DNA of 64,000 nucleotides from an uncultured Candidatus Micrarchaeota archaeon (GTDB lineage Archaea > Micrarchaeota > Micrarchaeia > Anstonellales > Bilamarchaeaceae), in the NCBI GenBank assembly GCA_963714085.1, contig OY970229.1:1152001-1216000 (forward strand), read 5' to 3'. Shown here piece by piece: positions 27,384 through 59,581 of the stretch; position 1 is the first letter of the stretch, and each line of letters starts with the position of its first letter. The notes beneath the pieces are model-generated. The model searched no databases, was not told where the DNA came from, and saw only the letters and a program-made list of their open reading frames with translations. Position numbers and translations under genes: made by a program.

Positions 27384-28680
27384 ATGCGTTAGGCCCGGGA
27401 AATCCAACGTCTTCAGACGTTGGATGAAAGGGCCTGATCTGCTCAGCTCCGTCGAGCACCGCGGAAATCCACCCGGGCAACGCTTATAAACGACCTTTCC
27501 GGCAAATCCTTATGAGAGTGACGCGGGCCTGGAAGTACCGGCTCTATCCTTCAAGAAGCCAGGAAAGGCTGCTGAACGACCAGTTCCACGAATGTAAGAC
27601 GCTCTGGAATTCCCTGCTGGAGCACACGAAGGAATACTACGAGGAAACAGGGAAATTCCCTACCAGGAAGCAGCTTTATCTTATGACAAAAGACACGGAA
27701 CTTTATTCCCAGGTAGCTCAGAACGTCGCAGACAGGCTTGTGAAATCCCTGAAGGGGGTGGTCGCCAGGAAAAAAGCCCGCAGGAAGGCAGGCTTCCCAC
27801 GGTTCAAATCATTTGAACGGGTGAAATCCCTGACCTATCCTCAGTTCGGTTTCAAGCTCAAAAACAAGCTGGAGCTGTCAGGGATTGGAAGCGTGGCAAT
27901 CAGGAAACACAGGGAGATGGATGGTGAGATCAAGACCCTGACCATAAAGAAATCCCCTTCAGGGAAGTGGCATGCGATTTTCACGACTGAATCCGAAAGA
28001 AAGATACCCGAGAGAAACAAGATGCCCAAGGTGGGTATCGACCTTGGGATAGAAACATTCGCGTATCTGAGCGACGGCTCAAGGATAGAGAATCCGCGGA
28101 ATCTCAGACTGGCAGAAGAACAGCTGAAGCTTGTCCAAAGGAGGATGTCTAATAAACGGAAGGGCAGCTCAAACAGGGCCAAAAACAGAAAAACGGTTGC
28201 AATCGCCTATGAAAGACTAACGAACAAGAGAAGGGATTTCCTTCACAAGGCAAGTCGTGCCCTTGTGGAGAATCATTCACTCATAGCCATGGAAGCGCTG
28301 AACAACGAAGGATTGGCGCGTGGTTTCCTGGCGAAAGAGGTATTGGACTGCAGCTGGGCGGAGTTCGCCGGCATGATCAGCTACAAGGCGGAAGGAGCTG
28401 GTTGCGAAGTCGTGCTGGTGAATCCCGCTTACACCTCCCAGAAGTGCAGCAACTGCGGTCTTATACAGAAGAAGTCGCTTGCGGAACGGTGGCATGATTG
28501 TCCTTGTGGGGCATCCATGCACAGGGACCTAAATGCAGCGATAAACATACTCCAACGAGCTACCGGTGGAACGCCGGGAAGTAAAGCCTGCGGAGAAGAG
28601 ACCTCTATCCGTTATAAACATAACGGGCAAGTATCTTCAATGAAACAGGAAGCCCACGCCTTTAGGCGTGGGTAGTTCAC
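27384..28680 (+). mobile_element. IS200/IS605-family tnpB-only element, family A copy 2 (1297 bp)
   Basis: Same ends as copy 1; preceded by TTTAA and ending in TCAC; precise removal restores the host ORF. Confidence 0.95.
27512..28675 (+). CDS. tnpB: RNA-guided endonuclease TnpB
   Basis: Close paralog of 6324-7487 with the RuvC D-E-D triad intact. Confidence 0.95.
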   Translation: MRVTRAWKYRLYPSRSQERLLNDQFHECKTLWNSLLEHTKEYYEETGKFPTRKQLYLMTKDTELYSQVAQNVADRLVKSLKGVVARKKARRKAGFPRFKSFERVKSLTYPQFGFKLKNKLELSGIGSVAIRKHREMDGEIKTLTIKKSPSGKWHAIFTTESERKIPERNKMPKVGIDLGIETFAYLSDGSRIENPRNLRLAEEQLKLVQRRMSNKRKGSSNRAKNRKTVAIAYERLTNKRRDFLHKASRALVENHSLIAMEALNNEGLARGFLAKEVLDCSWAEFAGMISYKAEGAGCEVVLVNPAYTSQKCSNCGLIQKKSLAERWHDCPCGASMHRDLNAAINILQRATGGTPGSKACGEETSIRYKHNGQVSSMKQEAHAFRRG

Positions 28681-53222: not shown

Positions 53223-53917
53223 AGCGCGAGTTCATCAAAAGCGGGATACCCGGCCTGGACAAGATAACCGGGGGCGGGCTGCTCGAGGGCTCCGTGGTCA
53301 CGCTGAGCGGGCCTACGGGGAGCGGCAAGAGCACGTTCGCGATGCAGTTCCTGGTGGAGGGGGCGCTCAAGTTCAAGGAGGCCGGCGTCTACATCGCGAT
53401 AGAGGAGAGCAAGGACTCCATGTACTTCCACATGAGCGGCTATGCCTGGGACCTGGACAAGATGGAGAAAGCCCGGCAGCTGGTCTTCCTGGACTACCCG
53501 GTCTACGAGGTGGACCAGTTCATGAACCAGTACTCCGCCATATTGGAGATCATCAACTCAGTGGGCGCGCGTCGCGTGGTCATAGACTCCATAATGCCCA
53601 TAGCCCTGTTCTTCCCCAACGACGAGGAGAGGAAGAAGGGGTTCCTCAAGTTCATAGACAACATCCGCAAGTGGAACACCACGACGCTCATAGTGTCCGA
53701 GGACACGACATCCGCGGCCGGAGAGGCGCTCCCGGAGACCAAGTACGGCATAGAGACCTTCACGGACGCCTGGATACACATATACAACATATTCTCAGAT
53801 AAGACGAAGGAGCGCACCCGCGAGATCGAGGTGCTCAAGATGAAGGGCGCGGCCCACAGCACGAAGAGATACCCGGCGAAGATAGACGCGAACGGGTTCA
53901 CGATACTGGTCAAATAG
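53219..53917 (+). CDS. KaiC/RAD55-family ATPase
   Basis: SGIPGLD, GPTGSGKS, VIDS, LKMKG. Confidence 0.92.
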   Translation: MKREFIKSGIPGLDKITGGGLLEGSVVTLSGPTGSGKSTFAMQFLVEGALKFKEAGVYIAIEESKDSMYFHMSGYAWDLDKMEKARQLVFLDYPVYEVDQFMNQYSAILEIINSVGARRVVIDSIMPIALFFPNDEERKKGFLKFIDNIRKWNTTTLIVSEDTTSAAGEALPETKYGIETFTDAWIHIYNIFSDKTKERTREIEVLKMKGAAHSTKRYPAKIDANGFTILVK

Positions 53918-54431
53918 GCCTGAGAACGCCCCAGACCAGTTTCCGCTCCTTCTCATCCAGCTTGTCGTAATCGGATTCGTACAGGATTATGCGCTTGCCC
54001 AGCTTCAGGAAACGCGCGGCCGACTCTTTCGTGGCCTCCTCGATTATGACATCGTGCACGATCTCCGCATCTCCGTGGTAGCCCGAAGTTGCGACCCCCA
54101 CCAGCAGCCGCTCGCTTTTTTTCCATTCCGAGAGGTCGGCTCCCAAGTCCAGGACCACCCGCGCCTTCACCTTGATGAGCCTCTCGATCATGTCCTTCTT
54201 CACGCTGCACTCGACCTGGATGTTCACGAAATAGGTGAGCTTGTCGTAGATGTCCATGTTGGACGTGGTCCCCCTGATCGCGTCCAGGTCAGCGATGTGG
54301 ATGAGCTTCGCGCCTTTCTCCGAGAGCTTCCTCACGAGCTGCGTGGGGTTCCCCATCATGCGGAGCGAGCCGTGGTCCATCCTGTACGCCTGCTTGTCCT
54401 TCACGTAGAAAAGAGGTATGTCGAGCGTCAT
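53910..54431 (-). CDS. Truncated HisA/HisF-related barrel protein
   Basis: GNP...GAKLIHIADLDA; only 173 aa. Confidence 0.6.
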   Translation of the reverse strand: MTLDIPLFYVKDKQAYRMDHGSLRMMGNPTQLVRKLSEKGAKLIHIADLDAIRGTTSNMDIYDKLTYFVNIQVECSVKKDMIERLIKVKARVVLDLGADLSEWKKSERLLVGVATSGYHGDAEIVHDVIIEEATKESAARFLKLGKRIILYESDYDKLDEKERKLVWGVLRPI

Positions 54432-54472: not shown

Positions 54473-55714
54473 TCATTTTATTGAACGCACTCTCCCAATC
54501 GCGTCCTCTATCTTCAGGGCCTCCTCCTTCCCGCTCGCCATGTCCCTGAGCGTGACTGTGCCGGCCTCCTTCTCGCGCTCGCCTACGACCGCGACGTAGG
54601 GGATGGACAGAGTGTTCGCGTAGTCAAGTTGTTTTCTTAGGTTGCGCTCGTTGAGGTCGGTCTCGCATTCTATTCCCCCGATGCGGAACTTCGCCGCGAC
54701 CTCTAGAGCATAGGAGTATAACTCGGGTTTTACCACCGCGAGGAAGACACGGGTGTCGGTCTTCTTGACCGCCGTCTTCTTCTCGGTTATGAGTGTCACC
54801 AGCCGTTCGATGCCCACCGATATCCCGGTGGCTGGCGCCGGCTGGCCGTAAACCCCTAATAAGTTGTCGTACCTTCCGCCTCCCATGACGCTGCCCATGC
54901 CCTCGCTGAGACTGACCTCGAACACCGGCCCGGTGTAATATCCGAGGCCGCGCGCAAGCGGAAGGCTTATCTCGATCTCGATTCCGCTGCACAGCTCCAG
55001 TATCTGCTCCAGCTCCTTCGCGCCCTCGGGGCTGTATTTGGCCGCGAGCGATAATTTCTTCTTGTTGTCGCCCTCCGCGTTTATCACGTCGAGGAGCTCC
55101 TTCGCCTTCTTCTTGCCGAGTATCTCCTGGAGCAGCTTGTCCACTTCGGCCTCGCCTATCTTGTCGAGTTTGTCCAGCACGCGGAAAACTTCCCCCTTGC
55201 TCTCGTCAAGCCCGAGCTTGGCGGATATCCCGTCGAGTATCTTGCGGTTGTTGAGCAGGATGCGCGGCTTTCCGAACCCGAACGCGACGCAGAGCGTGTT
55301 CGCGATGGAGAGCAATTCCGCTTCGCATCGCATGGACGGGCTCCCTATTATGTCAGCGTCAGCCTGGTAGAACTCGCGGAACCTTCCTCTCTGCGGCTCC
55401 TCCTTCCTCCAGACCACGTCGACCGCATACCGTTTGAAGGGCTTGGGCGTGTCCGTCCCGGCCGCGTATCTGGCGAGCGGCACCGTGAGGTCGAACCTGA
55501 GCCCGTACTCGTTGCCTTCGATCACGAATATCTGCTTGTCCACCTCGGGGCCGGCTTTTGCCCGGAGCGTCTCAAGGTATTCCATGGCCGGGGTCTCCAG
55601 CGGCCGGTAGCCGTAGAGCTGGAAGGTGCGCCGTATGCCGCCTATGACCTCCTCGCGCACGAACATGTCCTCGGGCCCGATGTCCCGCATTCCTTTCGGA
55701 GTGAGCTTTGCCAT
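54473..55714 (-). CDS. hisS: Histidine--tRNA ligase
   Basis: PKGMRD, LRFDLTVP, GRFREFYQ, ARGLGYYTG, GGGRYD, C-terminal anticodon-binding domain. Confidence 0.96.
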   Translation of the reverse strand: MAKLTPKGMRDIGPEDMFVREEVIGGIRRTFQLYGYRPLETPAMEYLETLRAKAGPEVDKQIFVIEGNEYGLRFDLTVPLARYAAGTDTPKPFKRYAVDVVWRKEEPQRGRFREFYQADADIIGSPSMRCEAELLSIANTLCVAFGFGKPRILLNNRKILDGISAKLGLDESKGEVFRVLDKLDKIGEAEVDKLLQEILGKKKAKELLDVINAEGDNKKKLSLAAKYSPEGAKELEQILELCSGIEIEISLPLARGLGYYTGPVFEVSLSEGMGSVMGGGRYDNLLGVYGQPAPATGISVGIERLVTLITEKKTAVKKTDTRVFLAVVKPELYSYALEVAAKFRIGGIECETDLNERNLRKQLDYANTLSIPYVAVVGEREKEAGTVTLRDMASGKEEALKIEDAIGRVRSIK

Positions 55715-55757
55715 GGTAACCACTTTCTACTTTCGGATTTAAAAAATGGAAAGAAAA

Positions 55758-56168
55758 TCAAGGGATGGCCGGGTAGCGCTGCCCCTTTTTCTTCGTCATG
55801 GTCCGGCGCAGTATCTCGCCCAGCACGTCCTCTATCCGGACGCCCCTGTTCACGAGGTACAACTGGACGAAATACAGCAGGTCCGCCGCCTCCCATATCA
55901 GGTTCCTCTCCCCGCGCGCGGTTATCAGCTCGACCGATTCCTCTATGACCTTCTTGCGTATCTTCCTGGGGTCGGCTAGGAGCTGCGACGTGTACGACCC
56001 CGGGTCGGGATTCCGCTCGCGCTCCCGTATCATGGCGGTCTCGAGCTGCAGGGCGAGCGCTGACGGTCCGGACCGCCGGATCATCGCGTCGATATCCCTT
56101 TTCCCGAAAACCTCTGCCGGGTCGGGCAGGGCCTGCTTTTTCGGCGTTCGTATTTTTCTCATGGCCAT
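55758..56168 (-). CDS. hisE: Phosphoribosyl-ATP pyrophosphatase
   Basis: GSYTSQLL, KKVIEESVE, EAADLLYF. Confidence 0.88.
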   Translation of the reverse strand: MAMRKIRTPKKQALPDPAEVFGKRDIDAMIRRSGPSALALQLETAMIRERERNPDPGSYTSQLLADPRKIRKKVIEESVELITARGERNLIWEAADLLYFVQLYLVNRGVRIEDVLGEILRRTMTKKKGQRYPAIP

Positions 56169-56172
56169 CGCC

Positions 56173-57021
56173 TCAGAGGACTATCAGCCTGGGCTCTGTG
56201 ACAACGATGCCAGAGCCCCCGTTCCCTTTCAGCGCCACCACCAGGTCCTCTATGCCTTTCTCCGGCACCGCCGCGGTCAGGGCGTAACCGCCGCCCACGA
56301 TGGGGCTGACGTCAGGATTTTTCAGGGCCGGAAGGATTTTCACCAGCTCGTCCCTTATCAGGTCCGTAGCCGCGTTTACCCGGACCATCAGGCGTTTTCG
56401 CGCTTCTATCACCGCTCTCAGGCAAAGCTCAATCCGGTCGATCTCCGGCTTCCTGCTTTTCAGGGATGCGGGATTCGCTAAAAGCCTCACCCGCGATTCC
56501 ATCAGCACCTTCAGGATGCGCAGGCCGTTCTCGCGCAACGTGGTGCCGGTGTCCACCTGGTCCACTATGGCTTCGGCTATGCGGAAGAACGGCGCGGTCT
56601 CAAGCGCGCCCTGGAGCCGGATTATCTTCGCGCTGCGGCAGTAACGCTCGGCGAGATTAGGCATCGTGGTGGCGATGCTTTCCGGCTCCCTTATCCTCGG
56701 CGGTGCCGCGAGGGCCACCTTGCAGGCCCCGAAATCCAGTTCCATCACCACCGCGAGGTCCCTTATGCGCCCCCAGGAGGGCGTGGTACAAAGGCCGCAC
56801 TCCGCAACGGCATCGTCGCCGGCAATGCCGATGTCCGCGGCACCGCGCGCCACGAACAACGGTATGTCCATGGCGCGTGCCAGCAGCAGCCGCACCCCTG
56901 CCCGAGACGTCGGGACGATGAGCTTCCGGTCGTCTCCGCCAAGGGCCTTCATGCCCGCGTCCTCAAGGAGCCTGAACAACGGCTCCCTCATCCTGCCCTT
57001 GTTGGGCACCGCTATGGTCAC
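56173..57021 (-). CDS. hisG: ATP phosphoribosyltransferase, long form; predicted to be made from ATG 57076 via a +1 frameshift
   Basis: IAVPNKGR, DIP..V..G..DIGIAG, GALE.AP, IVDQVDTGTTLRENGL, C-terminal regulatory domain. Confidence 0.93.
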   Translation of the reverse strand: MTIAVPNKGRMREPLFRLLEDAGMKALGGDDRKLIVPTSRAGVRLLLARAMDIPLFVARGAADIGIAGDDAVAECGLCTTPSWGRIRDLAVVMELDFGACKVALAAPPRIREPESIATTMPNLAERYCRSAKIIRLQGALETAPFFRIAEAIVDQVDTGTTLRENGLRILKVLMESRVRLLANPASLKSRKPEIDRIELCLRAVIEARKRLMVRVNAATDLIRDELVKILPALKNPDVSPIVGGGYALTAAVPEKGIEDLVVALKGNGGSGIVVTEPRLIVL

Positions 57022-57334
57022 TTCATTCGTGAAGTAAACCCCTTCCTTTTTTCACCTTGTTTTCCATTCCATTCATTTTTCACACCTCCTTGTTTTTTCT
57101 CTACATAGCTCCCGTTTCGGGAGAATGCGCACGATTCAACGTTTTCCGGAGCTCTCGCTATGCTTGCGTTTATCCTGCCGCCTTGCGCGGCGCTCACGTT
57201 CAGGAGTATTTTTTCCCCGGTTCTGATCCCGATGGCGTCCCTTATCTCCAAGGGTAAGACTAGCCGGCCCTTCCTGTCAAGCCGGATGAAGCAAATCCCT
57301 TCCCATGAAGGACATCCCTTCCTTGTTTCTCCAT
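57018..57334 (-). CDS. AbrB/MazE/SpoVT-family DNA-binding protein (104 aa), predicted to need two +1 frameshifts
   Basis: IRLDRKGRLVLPLEIRDAIGIRTGEKI AbrB signature has no in-frame ATG/GTG/TTG upstream; the SD-led ATG at 57334 reaches it by +1 shifts at 57310 and 57291. Confidence 0.8.
57023..57076 (-). CDS. hisG leader peptide MNGMENKVKKGRGLLHE* (unshifted product)
   Basis: Strong SD AGGAGGTG; its single His codon sits in the shift cassette. Confidence 0.75.
   Translation of the reverse strand: MNGMENKVKKGRGLLHE
57029..57046 (-). promoter_or_regulatory. Predicted His-sensing +1 frameshift site 3 (GGA AGG GGT TTA CTT CAC)
   Basis: prfB-like SD-like/3-nt/CTT geometry; the +1 frame is hisG. 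Confidence 0.8.
57286..57303 (-). promoter_or_regulatory. Predicted His-sensing +1 frameshift site 2 (GGA AGG GAT TTG CTT CAT)
   Basis: The +1 frame enters the AbrB domain. Confidence 0.8.
57305..57322 (-). promoter_or_regulatory. Predicted His-sensing +1 frameshift site 1 (GGA AGG GAT GTC CTT CAT)
   Basis: The +1 frame places site 2 in register. Confidence 0.78.
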
Positions 57335-57478
57335 CGTTTTCACCTTGTTCGCATGGTCATTGTGATTTTTCCCACTATTTATTTGTTTGTAACAAAATCC
57401 ATCCTCGTCTATTGCTCCCCTCTCCCCGGGTTTTCTGTTGCAGTACGTCTTTTAAACTGATTCAACGAAATTAGCGTA

Positions 57479-58483
57479 ATGGCGATCATGCGGAACAAGC
57501 AGCCGCGCCTGTGGTGGGTGAACGCACAGACCCCAGGTAACGGCCAGCCCCTCTCAAGAAGCAACTCCGCGATACTGCCGGCTGACAGGCAGAACAAAGC
57601 CAGGATATTCTGCAGCCGTAAAGAACTCTCGTTCTCCGCGCAAATGCTCAAGGGAAGGGAGAGGAGCATATGCCAGGATACCATCGCGATGCTCGTGCGC
57701 GACGACATCATCATGGCAGCGGTGCTCGACGGCCACGAAAGCTGGGGTCATTTGTACTCCCTTGAGATGGCGCGCTGCCTGGTCCGTTTAGCCAGGCACC
57801 TGCGGACGCCGACCGGGCCCGATGCCAAGCAGCTCATCATCGAAGCTGCGAAGGCCATGCCGTTTCTCCCCAGCGAAGACTATCTCGAGGCCTTGCTCGG
57901 AGCCCCGAAGAAAGGAGGCACCACGGTGACAGTGGCGCTGTTGGGCAGGGACCGCAGGTACAGCATAGCCACGCTTGGCGACTCGCCGCCGTACCTGGTC
58001 GGGCACGGCTCCGCGAAGCGGCTGTCTGACAGCTCCTGCATCTTGGACATCGATAGAAAAGACGAGGGCGGCCGCCTGTTCATAGGCAAAGACATCGTCC
58101 AATGGGATGATTATCTCGAAGTGCGGAATTACATATTCGGAGCGGTCAACGGATTCGTCACCACCAAGTCGGAGATACAAGTCAAGGAAGGCGAGCTGGA
58201 ACGCGGCATGAAGCTGGTGCTGGTGAGCGACGGGATAACGAAGAACCTCTCATGCGTCACGGACCTTTCCATGAACGTGCTTGATGTGAGCGGCAATCTT
58301 GACATGGCCCGGATCATGCGCGATGGCATGACGCTGACCGAAGCCACCTCGCGCTTGTTATCGGTCGCCCGCAGCCGCGCGGATGGCAAGAGCGGACCCA
58401 CTTTCCGGTCCAACGGTGAGCGCCTCGAGGTCGTTTCACCGGCTGACGATGACATGACCGTGATAGCGCTCGCAGCGGACTGA
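57479..58483 (+). CDS. PP2C/PPM-family phosphatase
   Basis: CQD, VLDGH, GGTT, LGDS, VSDG, DDMT. Confidence 0.85.
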   Translation: MAIMRNKQPRLWWVNAQTPGNGQPLSRSNSAILPADRQNKARIFCSRKELSFSAQMLKGRERSICQDTIAMLVRDDIIMAAVLDGHESWGHLYSLEMARCLVRLARHLRTPTGPDAKQLIIEAAKAMPFLPSEDYLEALLGAPKKGGTTVTVALLGRDRRYSIATLGDSPPYLVGHGSAKRLSDSSCILDIDRKDEGGRLFIGKDIVQWDDYLEVRNYIFGAVNGFVTTKSEIQVKEGELERGMKLVLVSDGITKNLSCVTDLSMNVLDVSGNLDMARIMRDGMTLTEATSRLLSVARSRADGKSGPTFRSNGERLEVVSPADDDMTVIALAAD

Positions 58484-59488: not shown

Positions 59489-59581
59489 AGCCCCGTCGTC
59501 TAGTGGTCAAGGATAGGAGGCTCTGGCTTTTCCTAAAAAAGGAGAAACCTCTTGACATCGGTTCGAATCCGGTCGGGGCTA
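59489..59581 (+). tRNA. tRNA-Gln(CTG) with canonical 37/38 intron (59527-59546)
   Basis: A1-T72 acceptor pair; GGAGG-CTCTGG[intron]A-CCTCT; BHB central helix CTCT/GGAG. Confidence 0.92.

Follow-up and report, generated by a model that had tools for sequence, protein, structure and literature searches.

Three short cassettes at the head of a histidine operon in an uncultured Candidatus Micrarchaeota archaeon are probably sites of programmed +1 ribosomal frameshifting, with a histidine codon serving as the sensor. The operon lies in a window of 64,000 nt (assembly GCA_963714085.1, contig OY970229.1, positions 1,152,001-1,216,000 of the forward strand), and coordinates refer to that whole stretch. 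All predictions of the frameshift reading that can be put to the sequence hold, in the window genome as well as in numerous independent relatives. One finding, stronger than the others, extends the claims of the preliminary description of this DNA: the same cassette, carrying proline, tryptophan or cysteine codons, stands before genes of the matching pathways.

The proposed mechanism begins with a ribosome that would initiate at the ATG of a short leader ORF, through that ORF's own Shine-Dalgarno site, and would reach a decision point with CUU in the P site and CAY in the A site. With charged tRNA-His plentiful, CAY would be decoded and translation would end at a stop codon 1 to 14 codons farther on (in the window). 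With charged tRNA-His scarce, the A site would stay empty and peptidyl-tRNA-Leu(GAG) could re-pair from CUU to UUC. This slip would be aided by the tract GGAAGGGRU, which ends 3 nt upstream and is similar to the host Shine-Dalgarno sequence. Translation would then go on in the +1 frame into the real gene. Cassette 3 would feed ribosomes into hisG, for the first step of histidine synthesis; cassettes 1 and 2, acting in series, would lead into an AbrB-like DNA-binding protein through two successive shifts, giving a steeper response. Very little AbrB-like protein would be made unless both shifts were efficient. Sequence comparison shows the anatomy and its conservation, the frame relations, the missing start codons and the agreement of sensor codon with pathway; from these we infer the shift itself, the P-site slip as its mode, pairing of the purine tract with 16S rRNA, and the response to amino-acid supply.

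Cassettes, leaders and reading frames

The features are listed in their order on the minus strand.

57366..57386, minus strand: putative archaeal promoter, an A/T-rich TATA-like box followed by AGTGGGAA
57340..57346, minus strand: Shine-Dalgarno site AAGGTGA of leader ORF A, complementary to the 16S 3' end GATCACCTCC
57260..57334, minus strand: leader ORF A, frame 0, from ATG 57334, MEKQGRDVLHGKGFASSGLTGRAG and stop
57305..57322, minus strand: cassette 1 (motif search), GGA AGG GAT GTC CTT CAT; proposed P-site CTT 57310-57308, sensor His codon CAT 57307-57305
57286..57303, minus strand: cassette 2, GGA AGG GAT TTG CTT CAT, in the +1 frame of cassette 1; CTT 57291-57289, CAT 57288-57286
57018..57287, minus strand: AbrB/SpoVT-like coding frame, beginning IRLDRKGRLVLPLEIRDAIGI, reached by a +1 shift from cassette 2
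57083..57089, minus strand: Shine-Dalgarno site GGAGGTG of leader ORF C, from the sequence
57023..57076, minus strand: leader ORF C, frame 0, from ATG 57076, MNGMENKVKKGRGLLHE and stop
57029..57046, minus strand: cassette 3 (motif search), GGA AGG GGT TTA CTT CAC; CTT 57034-57032, sensor His codon CAC 57031-57029
56173..57030, minus strand: hisG, long-form ATP phosphoribosyltransferase, in the +1 frame of cassette 3 and open from ACG 57030
55758..56168, minus strand: hisE, phosphoribosyl-ATP pyrophosphohydrolase (PRA-PH, E 2.5e-15)
54473..55723, minus strand: hisS, histidyl-tRNA synthetase, the last clear gene of the operon

The preliminary description reported three minus-strand copies of GGAAGGGRT-NTN-CTT-CAY, and they are present at exactly the positions it gave: GGAAGGGATGTCCTTCAT at 57322-57305, GGAAGGGATTTGCTTCAT at 57303-57286 and GGAAGGGGTTTACTTCAC at 57046-57029. 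With up to two mismatches allowed, the motif matches four times in the window, against 0.18 matches expected, and none of 100 shuffles reaches four. The fourth match (28229-28246, one mismatch) lies within a TnpB-like gene. At no more than one mismatch, these window matches are the only ones in the whole 1.57-Mb genome.

The frame relations also proved to be as described. Cassettes 1 and 3 are in frame with ATG codons preceded by Shine-Dalgarno sites, and cassette 2, which begins 19 nt after cassette 1, lies in the frame reached by the first shift. A +1 shift lands in the frame that is needed, which is that of the AbrB-like gene for cassette 2 and that of hisG for cassette 3. Ribosomes that fail to shift would soon stop. 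The stop of leader ORF A is 14 codons past its sensor codon, that of leader ORF C (TGA 57025-57023) is one codon past, and the frame of cassette 2, if unshifted, ends at TGA 57279-57277.

Assembly indels, an objection raised at the outset, are absent from the cassettes in independent contigs: one contig (run X1) spans 56893-57500 with a single substitution and zero indels, and contigs from two other studies (X3 and X4) span 57238-57386 with indel-free cassettes. These contigs, together with conservation over dozens of genomes, exclude errors and decayed genes as the source of the pattern. The repeats might otherwise be DNA operators, GAAG-N7-CTTC half-palindromes recognized by the AbrB-like protein or another regulator. 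Each cassette does bear short inverted arms, cassette 1 can pair with cassette 2, and a neighbouring gene encodes an AbrB-like DNA-binding protein. Operators, however, would not stay in a fixed frame with respect to the ATG before them and the gene after them, or vary as codons do, and explanations of this whole class are extremely unlikely.

The operon had been named abrB-hisG-hisE-hisS. Its his genes are clear: hisG matches HisG (1.7e-36), HisG_C and, above its cut-off, TIGR00070; hisS matches tRNA-synt_His (2.2e-42), HGTP_anticodon and TIGR00442 (358.6 bits against a cut-off of 286.75). The name abrB is less secure for the window protein taken singly, whose match to PF04014 (E 0.0027-0.0039; 18.1 bits) is below the cut-off of 24.7, but its family supports it. 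PF04014 matches 16 of the 23 members of the AbrB-like family (best E 9.4e-06), and the family profile matches Abh, SpoVT and AbrB at E 0.009-0.014. By these family-level matches, the predicted product of the first gene fits the AbrB/SpoVT/MazE swapped-hairpin domain.

The two target frames differ in their own starts. In the ORF list, the AbrB-like frame has no ATG, GTG or TTG until TTG 57251, already inside the domain; if CTTC is read as a single step, one open AbrB-like product of 104 residues results. The hisG frame has a GTG at 57021, one base past the stop of leader ORF C, and a second or alternative entry by termination-reinitiation is therefore possible there.

Conservation in relatives

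The preliminary description had pointed to related archaea as the place to look, and relatives keep both the cassettes and the frame relations. Four of them (L018, L019, L020 and L022), picked by HisG protein similarity alone and not by the motif (62-81% identity), have kept both cassette 1 and cassette 3, together with leader ORFs that begin at an ATG behind a Shine-Dalgarno site, and the +1 relation holds in them too; the cassette 3 18-mer is identical in the first three. Homologues of leader ORF A, 24-25 codons long and with the same TAG end, occur in L019, L020, L022, L031, L044, L060, L065, L073 and others, and homologues of leader ORF C in L019, L020, L022, L031, L044 and L083. AGGTG is kept at equal distance in the AbrB-type leaders of relatives, and GAGGTG recurs at the matching distance in most structural-gene leaders; from Shine-Dalgarno site to ATG, the leader distance is most often 8 nt. 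Farther upstream, the string ATAGTGGGAA also precedes leaders in L052, L058 and L088.

Of 401 genomes sampled from the phylum, 56 carry the motif at no more than one mismatch; in the window's own family the figure is 33 of 75 (about 80 matches in the survey, against about 21 for a reversed control). Leaders were then defined as a Shine-Dalgarno site, an ATG and a cassette within at most 60 codons, and 110 across Iainarchaeota-like genomes meet this definition. An ORF of at least 100 codons opens after the leader in the +1 frame in 56 of the 110, in the +2 frame in three, and in frame 0 in none; the three +2 cases are the first cassettes of AbrB tandems. In 31 of the first 47 of these +1 ORFs, the frame upstream is devoid of ATG, GTG and TTG, and six of these 31 also lack a canonical start within their first 40 codons downstream. 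The other 16 have a canonical start upstream in frame, which is ATG in ten. AbrB-like sites have an upstream cassette in 22 of 25 cases, at a spacing of 19, 22, 25, 28 or 88 nt, and the spacing is 1 mod 3 in 22 of 22.

In the relatives picked by protein similarity, each of the ten cassettes has C or T as the base after CTT; later lists of sites came from a search pattern that demanded CTT and so add nothing on this count. The GRAAGG tract is almost invariant, as is GRAAGGGRT, and the site pattern left the bases of GRAAGG individually free. CAC and CAT replace each other synonymously, the NTN codon varies among leucine and valine codons, and conservation ends immediately 3' of the sensor codon. 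The constraint, judged from these comparisons, is on nucleotides. Just past the shift site, substitutions at positions 1, 2 and 3 of the +1 frame number 59, 47 and 77, no more than a mild third-position bias overall.

Could the leaders control their targets without any frameshift? The downstream gene would then start by termination-reinitiation, or by ordinary initiation at a nearby GTG, TTG or CTG, and the +1 relation would be a by-product of overlapping stop and start codons. The hisG junction invites this explanation: TGA 57025-57023 is one base from GTG 57021; every one of the nine long-HisG leaders seen has the stop-A-NTG layout (GTG in six, CTG in two, TTG in one); a predicted hairpin joins the shift site to the region of the leader stop and GTG; and when the protein is started at GTG, its alignment to the NCBIfam hisG model begins at residue 1. 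In L022 and L044, though, this GTG is a CTG, and a canonical start is thus absent. The explanation fails for the AbrB-like gene, whose earliest start is TTG 57251, within the domain, and for the six +1 ORFs that are startless from the upstream stop to 40 codons downstream. The distance from sensor codon to leader stop is also spread from 0 to 33 codons. Moreover, stalling at a hungry codon would reduce reinitiation, the wrong direction for a biosynthetic gene, and the invariant CTT, the purine tract 3 nt upstream and the 22 of 22 spacings of 1 mod 3 are left unexplained. Control by the leader peptide in this manner is unlikely.

Sensor codon and pathway

The frameshift reading assigns specificity to the codon after CTT, which tracks the pathway of the downstream genes. 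By Pfam assignment, CAY stands upstream of HisG (8 sites), HisD (9) and HisI (1), and HisRS is downstream of CAY cassettes in 14 loci. CCA or CCT stands upstream of P5C reductase (proC; 5 sites) and a proB-like kinase (3 sites), TGG upstream of TrpE (3 sites), and TGC upstream of a cysteine-synthase-type enzyme (1 site). The match is not universal. An aspartokinase-asd operon (L135) has cassettes with TAT and CTC, mismatched to the pathway and unexplained, and cassettes with TTC or TGC also precede small HTH proteins, with no demonstrated link to a pathway. Where the sensor codon is not one for histidine, its first base is C or T in 20 of 21 leaders; for background motif hits the figure is 47 of 78 (Fisher p = 0.0015). 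A first pyrimidine is what the anticodon GAG needs in order to re-pair on UUC or UUU.

A fixed-rate +1 shift, or a tRNA that reads four bases, would recode the sites constitutively, whatever the amino-acid supply. The same anatomy is compatible with a shift at fixed ratio, and tRNA scans detected no tRNA-His gene in this genome, so that its decoding apparatus is incompletely known. But constitutive recoding gives the sensor codon no reason to follow the histidine, proline, tryptophan and cysteine pathways, and scans of the genome at standard thresholds found no tRNA with an enlarged anticodon loop. hisG itself carries a second in-frame CTTC, at codon 248, and would be broken there if CUUC were read as four bases everywhere, so that the shift has to be context-dependent. 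We consider constitutive recoding quite improbable, somewhat more so than control by the leader peptide. The tRNA-Leu(GAG) invoked for re-pairing from CUU to UUC in the frameshift reading does have a gene in the genome.

Pairing of the purine tract with the 16S tail GAUCACCUCC is predicted to be only moderate, at -6.1 to -9.7 kcal/mol, compared with -4.8 for one shuffled control and -12.2 for a real Shine-Dalgarno site. The tract might itself be a true Shine-Dalgarno site for internal initiation, with the +1 codon 7 nt downstream (ACN, ATN, CAN or TCN) as an unusual start. It is similar to GGAGGTGAT, and 7 nt is near the usual 8 nt from Shine-Dalgarno site to ATG. The starts would have to be ACA, ACG, ACT, ACC, ATC, ATT, ATA, CAT, CAG or TCN, however, most of them two positions off ATG. 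Nor would internal initiation account for the frame-0 ATG and its own Shine-Dalgarno site farther upstream, for a CTT that never varies, for the synonymous exchange of CAC and CAT, or for the agreement between frame-0 codon and pathway. It is very unlikely.

Control by alternative RNA structures finds no sign in the leader. Its RNA folds no better than shuffles (z-score 0.6; 148 of 200 shuffles equal or better), no alternative terminator and antiterminator hairpins are evident in the fold, and no Rfam family, T-box included, matches at E ≤ 1 in 56800-57600. Each cassette has one sensor codon, and the earlier inference of frameshifting rather than attenuation or a T-box fits these results.

Comparison with known systems

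The bacterial prfB (RF2) shift site is AGGGGG-TAT-CTT-TGA. The geometry matches, as had been claimed: a purine tract resembling a Shine-Dalgarno site is set off by 3 nt from CUU, and the codon in the A site is one that is decoded slowly. In both systems the downstream frame is +1; ORF 0 has its own initiation signals and a stop soon after the shift site (here in the 110 leaders); the slippery P-site CUU can re-pair in the +1 frame, here with tRNA-Leu(GAG) present; and the logic is autoregulatory, with shortage of the factor that reads the A site raising the shift. The +1 ORF of prfB has no start of its own, which holds for the AbrB-like frame and only partly for the window hisG, with its GTG. 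Unlike prfB, the A-site codon is a sense codon (CAY, or CCA, TGG and TGC elsewhere) and not UGA; the genes are his, pro, trp and cys genes and not RF2; ORF 0 is a short separate leader and not the N-terminal part of one conserved protein; the sites can be used in series; and the hosts are archaea. By its layout, then, the cassette would work like the prfB site but is not a member of the prfB type.

Bacterial his, trp and pheL attenuation likewise uses a short leader ORF that reads the charging of one tRNA and sets the matching biosynthetic operon. There, however, the leader has a run of sensor codons, not a single one per cassette, and the output is transcription termination, not a change of reading frame. 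T-boxes regulate hisS and amino-acid genes by tRNA charging, and antizyme is a metabolite-sensing +1 frameshift that feeds back on its own pathway. Sensing in the archaeal cassettes would differ from both in using the decoding site, rather than an RNA that binds tRNA or a polyamine.

Hungry-codon frameshifting (Gallant and co-workers) and the yeast Ty1 site CUU-AGG-C are covered in a 2016 review (PMC5009743). As presented there, a P-site tRNA-Leu on CUU slips +1 while the A-site codon awaits a scarce tRNA, as proposed here. The hungry-codon cases are laboratory starvation effects, unlike the present one, and Ty1 is a fixed-rate shift with a rare tRNA in a retrotransposon. On functional, starvation-specific trans-frame proteins, the same review states that "no examples are known". 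A 2021 review gives no cellular case of +1 frameshifting in archaea (PMC8211752). The preliminary description knew of no archaeal mechanism of this type, and our literature search likewise found no description of one.

A modular sensor

We lean toward a broader reading, held a little less firmly than the one for the histidine cassettes: an order of DPANN archaea may possess a modular translational sensor of amino acids, in which one codon sets the specificity and shortage of the charged tRNA causes a +1 shift that opens the matching gene. The module would consist of a fixed 15-nt unit (Shine-Dalgarno-like tract, NUN codon and CUU) and one exchangeable sensor codon. Histidine, proline, tryptophan and cysteine versions are apparent from the sites found, with perhaps a phenylalanine version. 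Sensor codons would be confined to those with a first pyrimidine because tRNA-Leu(GAG) must re-pair after the slip. The apparent targets are a biosynthetic gene, an aminoacyl-tRNA-synthetase operon or a small regulator, and cassettes could be wired in series, so that both +1 shifts are needed, or in the same frame, so that either suffices.

To our knowledge, amino-acid control in archaea is poorly understood. If the broader reading is true, archaea gain a simple, general mechanism for sensing tRNA charging. It would join attenuation and T-boxes as a third general solution to that task, and no regulatory cellular +1 frameshift would have been reported in Archaea before it. It would also be a natural hungry-codon frameshift that gives a functional starvation product, the case described as missing in PMC5009743. 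The module is short and its specificity apparently comes from one codon, so that it can be tested directly with reporters and has appeal for the design of sensors. Annotation is affected in practice: hisG, hisD, hisI, proB, proC, trpE, a cysteine synthase and several regulators lack normal starts in these small genomes, and such genes will be annotated as truncated, mis-started or pseudogenes, distorting metabolic reconstructions of DPANN archaea.

Leader organization of the his operon

An AbrB-like gene heads the operon, followed by hisG (HisG, 1.7e-36, plus HisG_C; TIGR00070 above its cut-off), hisE (PRA-PH, 2.5e-15), and hisS (HisRS, 2.2e-42; TIGR00442, 358.6 bits vs a cut-off of 286.75). 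Three minus-strand copies of the cassette GGAAGGGRT-NTN-CTT-CAY, in which CTT is the proposed P-site codon and the codon after it the sensor codon, lie exactly where the preliminary description had placed them. Its account of the reading frames also held: cassettes 1 and 3 are in frame with ATG codons preceded by Shine-Dalgarno sequences; cassette 2 is in the frame reached by a shift at cassette 1; and a +1 shift after CTT gives the frame needed for both the AbrB-like gene and hisG.

Leader features in the window
~57386-57366, minus strand: A/T-rich box upstream of AAGGTGA and the ATG at 57334
57334 (ATG) to 57262-57260 (TAG), minus strand: leader ORF A, MEKQGRDVLHGKGFASSGLTGRAG, preceded by AAGGTGA
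57322-57305, minus strand: cassette 1, GGA AGG GAT GTC CTT CAT, in the ORF A frame
57303-57286, minus strand: cassette 2, GGA AGG GAT TTG CTT CAT, starting 19 nt past the start of cassette 1 and so in its +1 frame
to 57020-57018 (TGA), minus strand: AbrB-like frame, +1 of cassette 2, IRLDRKGRLVLPLEIRDAIGI... (from the ORF listing)
57076 (ATG) to 57025-57023 (TGA), minus strand: leader ORF C, MNGMENKVKKGRGLLHE, preceded by GGAGGTG
57046-57029, minus strand: cassette 3, GGA AGG GGT TTA CTT CAC, in ORF C
from 57030 (ACG), minus strand: hisG, open in the +1 frame of cassette 3, with an in-frame GTG at 57021

The cassette 2 frame stops at a TGA (57279-57277), and the earliest ATG, GTG, or TTG in the AbrB-like frame, a TTG at 57251, is within the domain. 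With up to two mismatches allowed, the window contains four motif matches vs 0.18 expected, a count reached in none of 100 shuffles. Frame breaks such as these might stem from assembly error, a concern raised at the outset. Independent contigs covering the leader region contain 0 indels and the structure is kept across genomes, which rules this source out. The leader has no Rfam match to a known RNA family, and its folding energy is not unusual.

The sole further motif copy in the 1.57-Mb genome is inside a TnpB-like gene (window 27512-28675, plus strand), where an in-frame near-cassette, AGAAGGGATTTCCTTCAC, occupies 28229-28246 and encodes RRDFLH. This string recurs in many relatives' genomes and is probably just a conserved TnpB motif. 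The match at 28229 was rejected as part of the switch, since it belongs to the transposase's conserved RRDFLH-coding motif.

A proposed frameshift mechanism

In the prfB frameshift site, a Shine-Dalgarno-like tract stands 3 nt ahead of CUU, which is followed by a slowly read A-site codon. The cassettes share this layout (tract, 3 nt, CUU, sensor codon), in agreement with the geometry first proposed for them. The organism's strong Shine-Dalgarno sites (GGAGGTG) match its 16S tail, GATCACCTCC, and the cassette tract GGAAGG-GAT reads as an imperfect copy of GGAGGTGAT; predicted pairing between cassette tract and 16S tail is moderate (-6.1 to -9.7 kcal/mol). The genome encodes tRNA-Leu(GAG). Its anticodon would form two Watson-Crick pairs and one G-U on CUU and, by base-pairing rules, the same number on UUC after the slip.

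Codon usage within the cassettes is uneven. The first codon alternates among Gly, Glu, and Ala (GGA, GAA, GCA), His is written either CAC or CAT, and various Leu and Val codons occupy the NTN position. Arg is AGG in all sites seen, and Leu is CTT in all cassettes of the relatives found independently of the motif. As far as sequence comparison can tell, selection is on the nucleotides, not the peptide. A further in-frame CTTC occurs at hisG codon 248, so the event must depend on cassette context rather than on general four-base reading.

The circuit would work by negative feedback, in which scarce His-tRNA would leave the A site empty, and the ribosome would then shift +1 to make HisG and the AbrB-like protein. 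It seems quite probable that the cassettes constitute a +1 frameshift mechanism that senses an amino acid.

Relatives identified through HisG

A HisG search of public contigs, made independently of the motif, yielded four useful loci: L018 (81% identical to the window HisG, with just 33 nt of upstream sequence); L019 and L020 (62%); and L022 (63%). Cassette 3 and its frame relation to hisG are kept in all four, and the 18-mer is identical in three. Loci L019, L020, and L022 also keep cassette 1, within a 24-25-codon ORF A that has the same terminal TAG; a degenerate cassette 2 in the +1 frame; and ORF C, complete with its GGAGGTG and ATG. The base following CTTCAC is G, A, C, or T depending on the locus; in the hisG frame, this base falls at the third position of a Thr codon.

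In L022 and another relative's locus, L044, a 9-nt insertion preserves the +1 relation, and CTG replaces the hisG GTG, leaving hisG there without a canonical start. Over the 15 codons past the shift site these two loci differ at 1, 2, and 7 bases in +1-frame positions 1, 2, and 3, respectively, and the two differences ahead of TIAVP (AAA/AAG, GAA/GAG) are synonymous in the +1 frame.

Family-level HisG relatives were found in 13 of 41 genomes, at identities of at most 39%; in these, hisB is the immediate upstream neighbour of hisG, and no leader is present at that place. As a refutation, this was dropped: genomes G013, G005, and G006 have the cassette ~3.6 kb upstream of hisG, at the head of the same operon, before hisD. 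The device therefore marks the operon's first gene, whichever gene that is.

Locus L073, from a sister species of the same genus (genome G001, contig 53), combines four His cassettes in a single operon: two in tandem ahead of an AbrB-like gene, and one each ahead of a divergent short HisG-like gene and of hisI, with HisRS after them.

The AbrB-like first gene

Whereas the hisG, hisE, and hisS names in the preliminary description are clear, abrB is a sub-threshold assignment for the window protein alone (PF04014, E 0.0027-0.0039). Twenty-five homologues behind such cassettes in other genomes were collected and 23 aligned; 16 of these 23 match PF04014 (best E 9.4e-06), and the alignment profile matches Abh, SpoVT, and AbrB at E 0.009-0.014. 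The profile segment RLDKKaRLVLPlEIRdalgi aligns to Abh KVDELGRIVMPIELRRALDI from residue 9 of the Abh chain, and solved AbrB relatives have about eight residues ahead of this point. Here cassette 2 and the first codon past the shift encode the corresponding residues (..DLL-I), which a protein begun within the AbrB-like frame would lack. If CTTC is read in a single step, the result is one uninterrupted AbrB-like product of 104 residues.

An upstream cassette precedes the tandem partner in 22 of the 25 AbrB-like genes, at spacings of 19, 22, 25, 28, or 88 nt, and all 22 spacings are 1 mod 3. Among the genes lacking an upstream cassette, that in locus L122 has one cassette with its own ATG.

In L019, L020, and L022 the AbrB-like ORF, which lies between cassette 2 and ORF C, has lost the RLDRKGR motif and kept LVL...AI.I..L.PSM.AG...SIS.SYVEK. 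Differences are mostly synonymous, and nucleotide conservation is very high.

Sensor codon and pathway

Across loci from public contigs and relatives' genomes, the sensor codon can be compared with the product of the ORF in the +1 frame.

Sensor codons and +1 ORFs
CAY (His): HisG; window, L019, L020, L022, L031, L044, L061, L081
CAY (His): HisD; L026, L027, L028, L041, L055, L056, L059, L085, L092
CAY (His): HisI; L073
CAY (His): radical-SAM proteins, and families X (~350 aa) and Y (360-466 aa), which have no Pfam or NCBIfam match
CCA or CCT (Pro): pyrroline-5-carboxylate reductase (proC); L087, L089, L156, L187, L193
CCA (Pro): amino-acid kinase, best NCBIfam model proB, below cut-off; L089, L145, L146
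TGG (Trp): anthranilate synthase component I (trpE); L185, L186, L188
TGC (Cys): cysteine-synthase-type PLP enzyme (cysKM subfamily, 351.7 bits vs a cut-off of 344.15); L182

In addition, 14 loci encode HisRS on the same strand, downstream of HisG, X, or Y. If tRNA-Leu, with its GAG anticodon, has to move its pairing from CUU to UUC or UUU, sensor codons should begin with a pyrimidine. Non-His sensor codons do so in 20 of 21 switch-like sites vs 47 of 78 other motif matches (p = 0.0015). The match between sensor codon and pathway makes a strong case of what was a plausible anatomy. Taken together, these comparisons support the frameshift switch first proposed and suggest that it generalises.

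For archaeal recoding, a 2021 review (PMC8211752) lists a single cellular -1 frameshift, in fucA1, along with a probable case in magnesium chelatase; a likely +1 event is given for a haloarchaeal virus only. A 2016 recoding review (PMC5009743) describes prfB-like and Ty1 CUU sites and hungry codons, and says of functional trans-frame products specific to starvation that 'no examples are known'. A full-text literature search, with most subscription journals outside its coverage, turned up no account of frameshift leaders that sense amino acids, whether archaeal or bacterial. The mechanism class is already known; what would be new, to our knowledge, is that it serves biosynthetic and synthetase operons as an amino-acid sensor programmed by a codon, and that it does so in Archaea.

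Several further loci were noted. Family X (L034, L037, L043, L047, L069, L074, L076, L077, L079) and family Y (L038, L045, L062, L063) stand behind His cassettes and, in several loci, immediately precede HisRS. In the ESM Atlas, X has a weak lead towards cyclodipeptide synthases, and Y has none. An aspartokinase-asd operon (L135, G280:C100) has two same-frame cassettes at 400 and 421 with TAT and CTC after CTT, codons that misfit the pathway; it is only a thought that aspartate-family codons, which begin with A, could not work with a CUU slip. Cassettes with TTC (Phe; L078, L086, L091, L115) or TGC (Cys; L140, L142, L183, L184, L192) precede small +1 HTH_7- or HTH_23-like proteins (62-100 aa), whose neighbours, one of them AbiEii-like, gave no pathway clue.

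Census of switch-like sites

With at most one mismatch, the motif occurs in 56 of the 401 phylum genomes sampled; for the window's own family, the figure is 33 of 75. This amounts to ~80 matches vs ~21 in the reversed control (counted from the table). A looser pattern that omits the sensor codon has matches in 79 of 99 family genomes, and one excluding second-base A gave 61 matches vs ~22 in the control (176 genomes of the order).

One script scored 233 pattern sites (216 + 17), and classed as switch-like those with a frame-0 ATG preceded by GGTG, GAGG, or GGAG and a leader no longer than 60 codons. Among the 110 switch-like sites, 56 lead into an ORF of 100 codons or more in the +1 frame, three into one in +2, and none into one in frame 0, the last a consequence of the definition. 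Each of the three +2 sites is the first cassette in an AbrB tandem, in which a pair of +1 shifts sums to +2. No ATG, GTG, or TTG lies upstream in frame in 31 of the first 47 +1 ORFs; the other 16 have some upstream in-frame start. Six +1 ORFs lack a start both upstream and in the next 40 codons (L045; L073 at 2892; L082 at 2437; L085; L089 at 2049; L145).

The site-list patterns fixed G[AG]T, the middle T, and CTT, so invariance at those positions proves nothing; the GRAAGG tract, sensor codon, and surroundings were not fixed base by base. Differences after the shift site show a clear third-position bias for ProB (2, 1, and 8 at positions 1, 2, and 3) and ProC (3, 2, and 8), and a weak one over all sites (59, 47, and 77).

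Alternative entry and neighbouring genes

Each of the nine long-HisG leaders has an A right after its stop codon, with GTG (six), CTG (two), or TTG (one) coming next. Reinitiation at this NTG could give basal HisG. Alternatively, the NTG could be hidden: in the window (57018-57040, minus strand) the shift site UACUUCA is paired with the leader stop and GUG (UGAAGUG) across a variable 4-nt loop. By eye, the same hairpin is present in L018, L019, L020, L031, L083, L022, and L044, with a longer stem in the last two. The shift-site complement TGAAG was rejected as a general downstream element, occurring at 15 of 56 sites, mostly in the HisG and X families.

Neither ARAGORN, with or without introns, nor the Rfam tRNA model found a tRNA-His gene in the window's genome (single contig, 87.65% complete), and two low-threshold candidates are not credible. 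The gene may be split or have unusual introns.

A 173-aa ORF 3' of hisS (window 53910-54431, minus strand) matches the first third alone of the His_biosynth (HisA/HisF) model (E 8.1e-06), and may be a truncated or divergent gene. An intron-bearing tRNA-Gln(CTG) (window 59489-59581, plus strand) is syntenic with the his leader, with a PP2C-like gene (57479-58483) between them in the window. In L019, L020, and L022, a tRNA ~200 nt upstream of the leader was missed by ARAGORN; by eye, it is the same intron-bearing tRNA-Gln(CTG).
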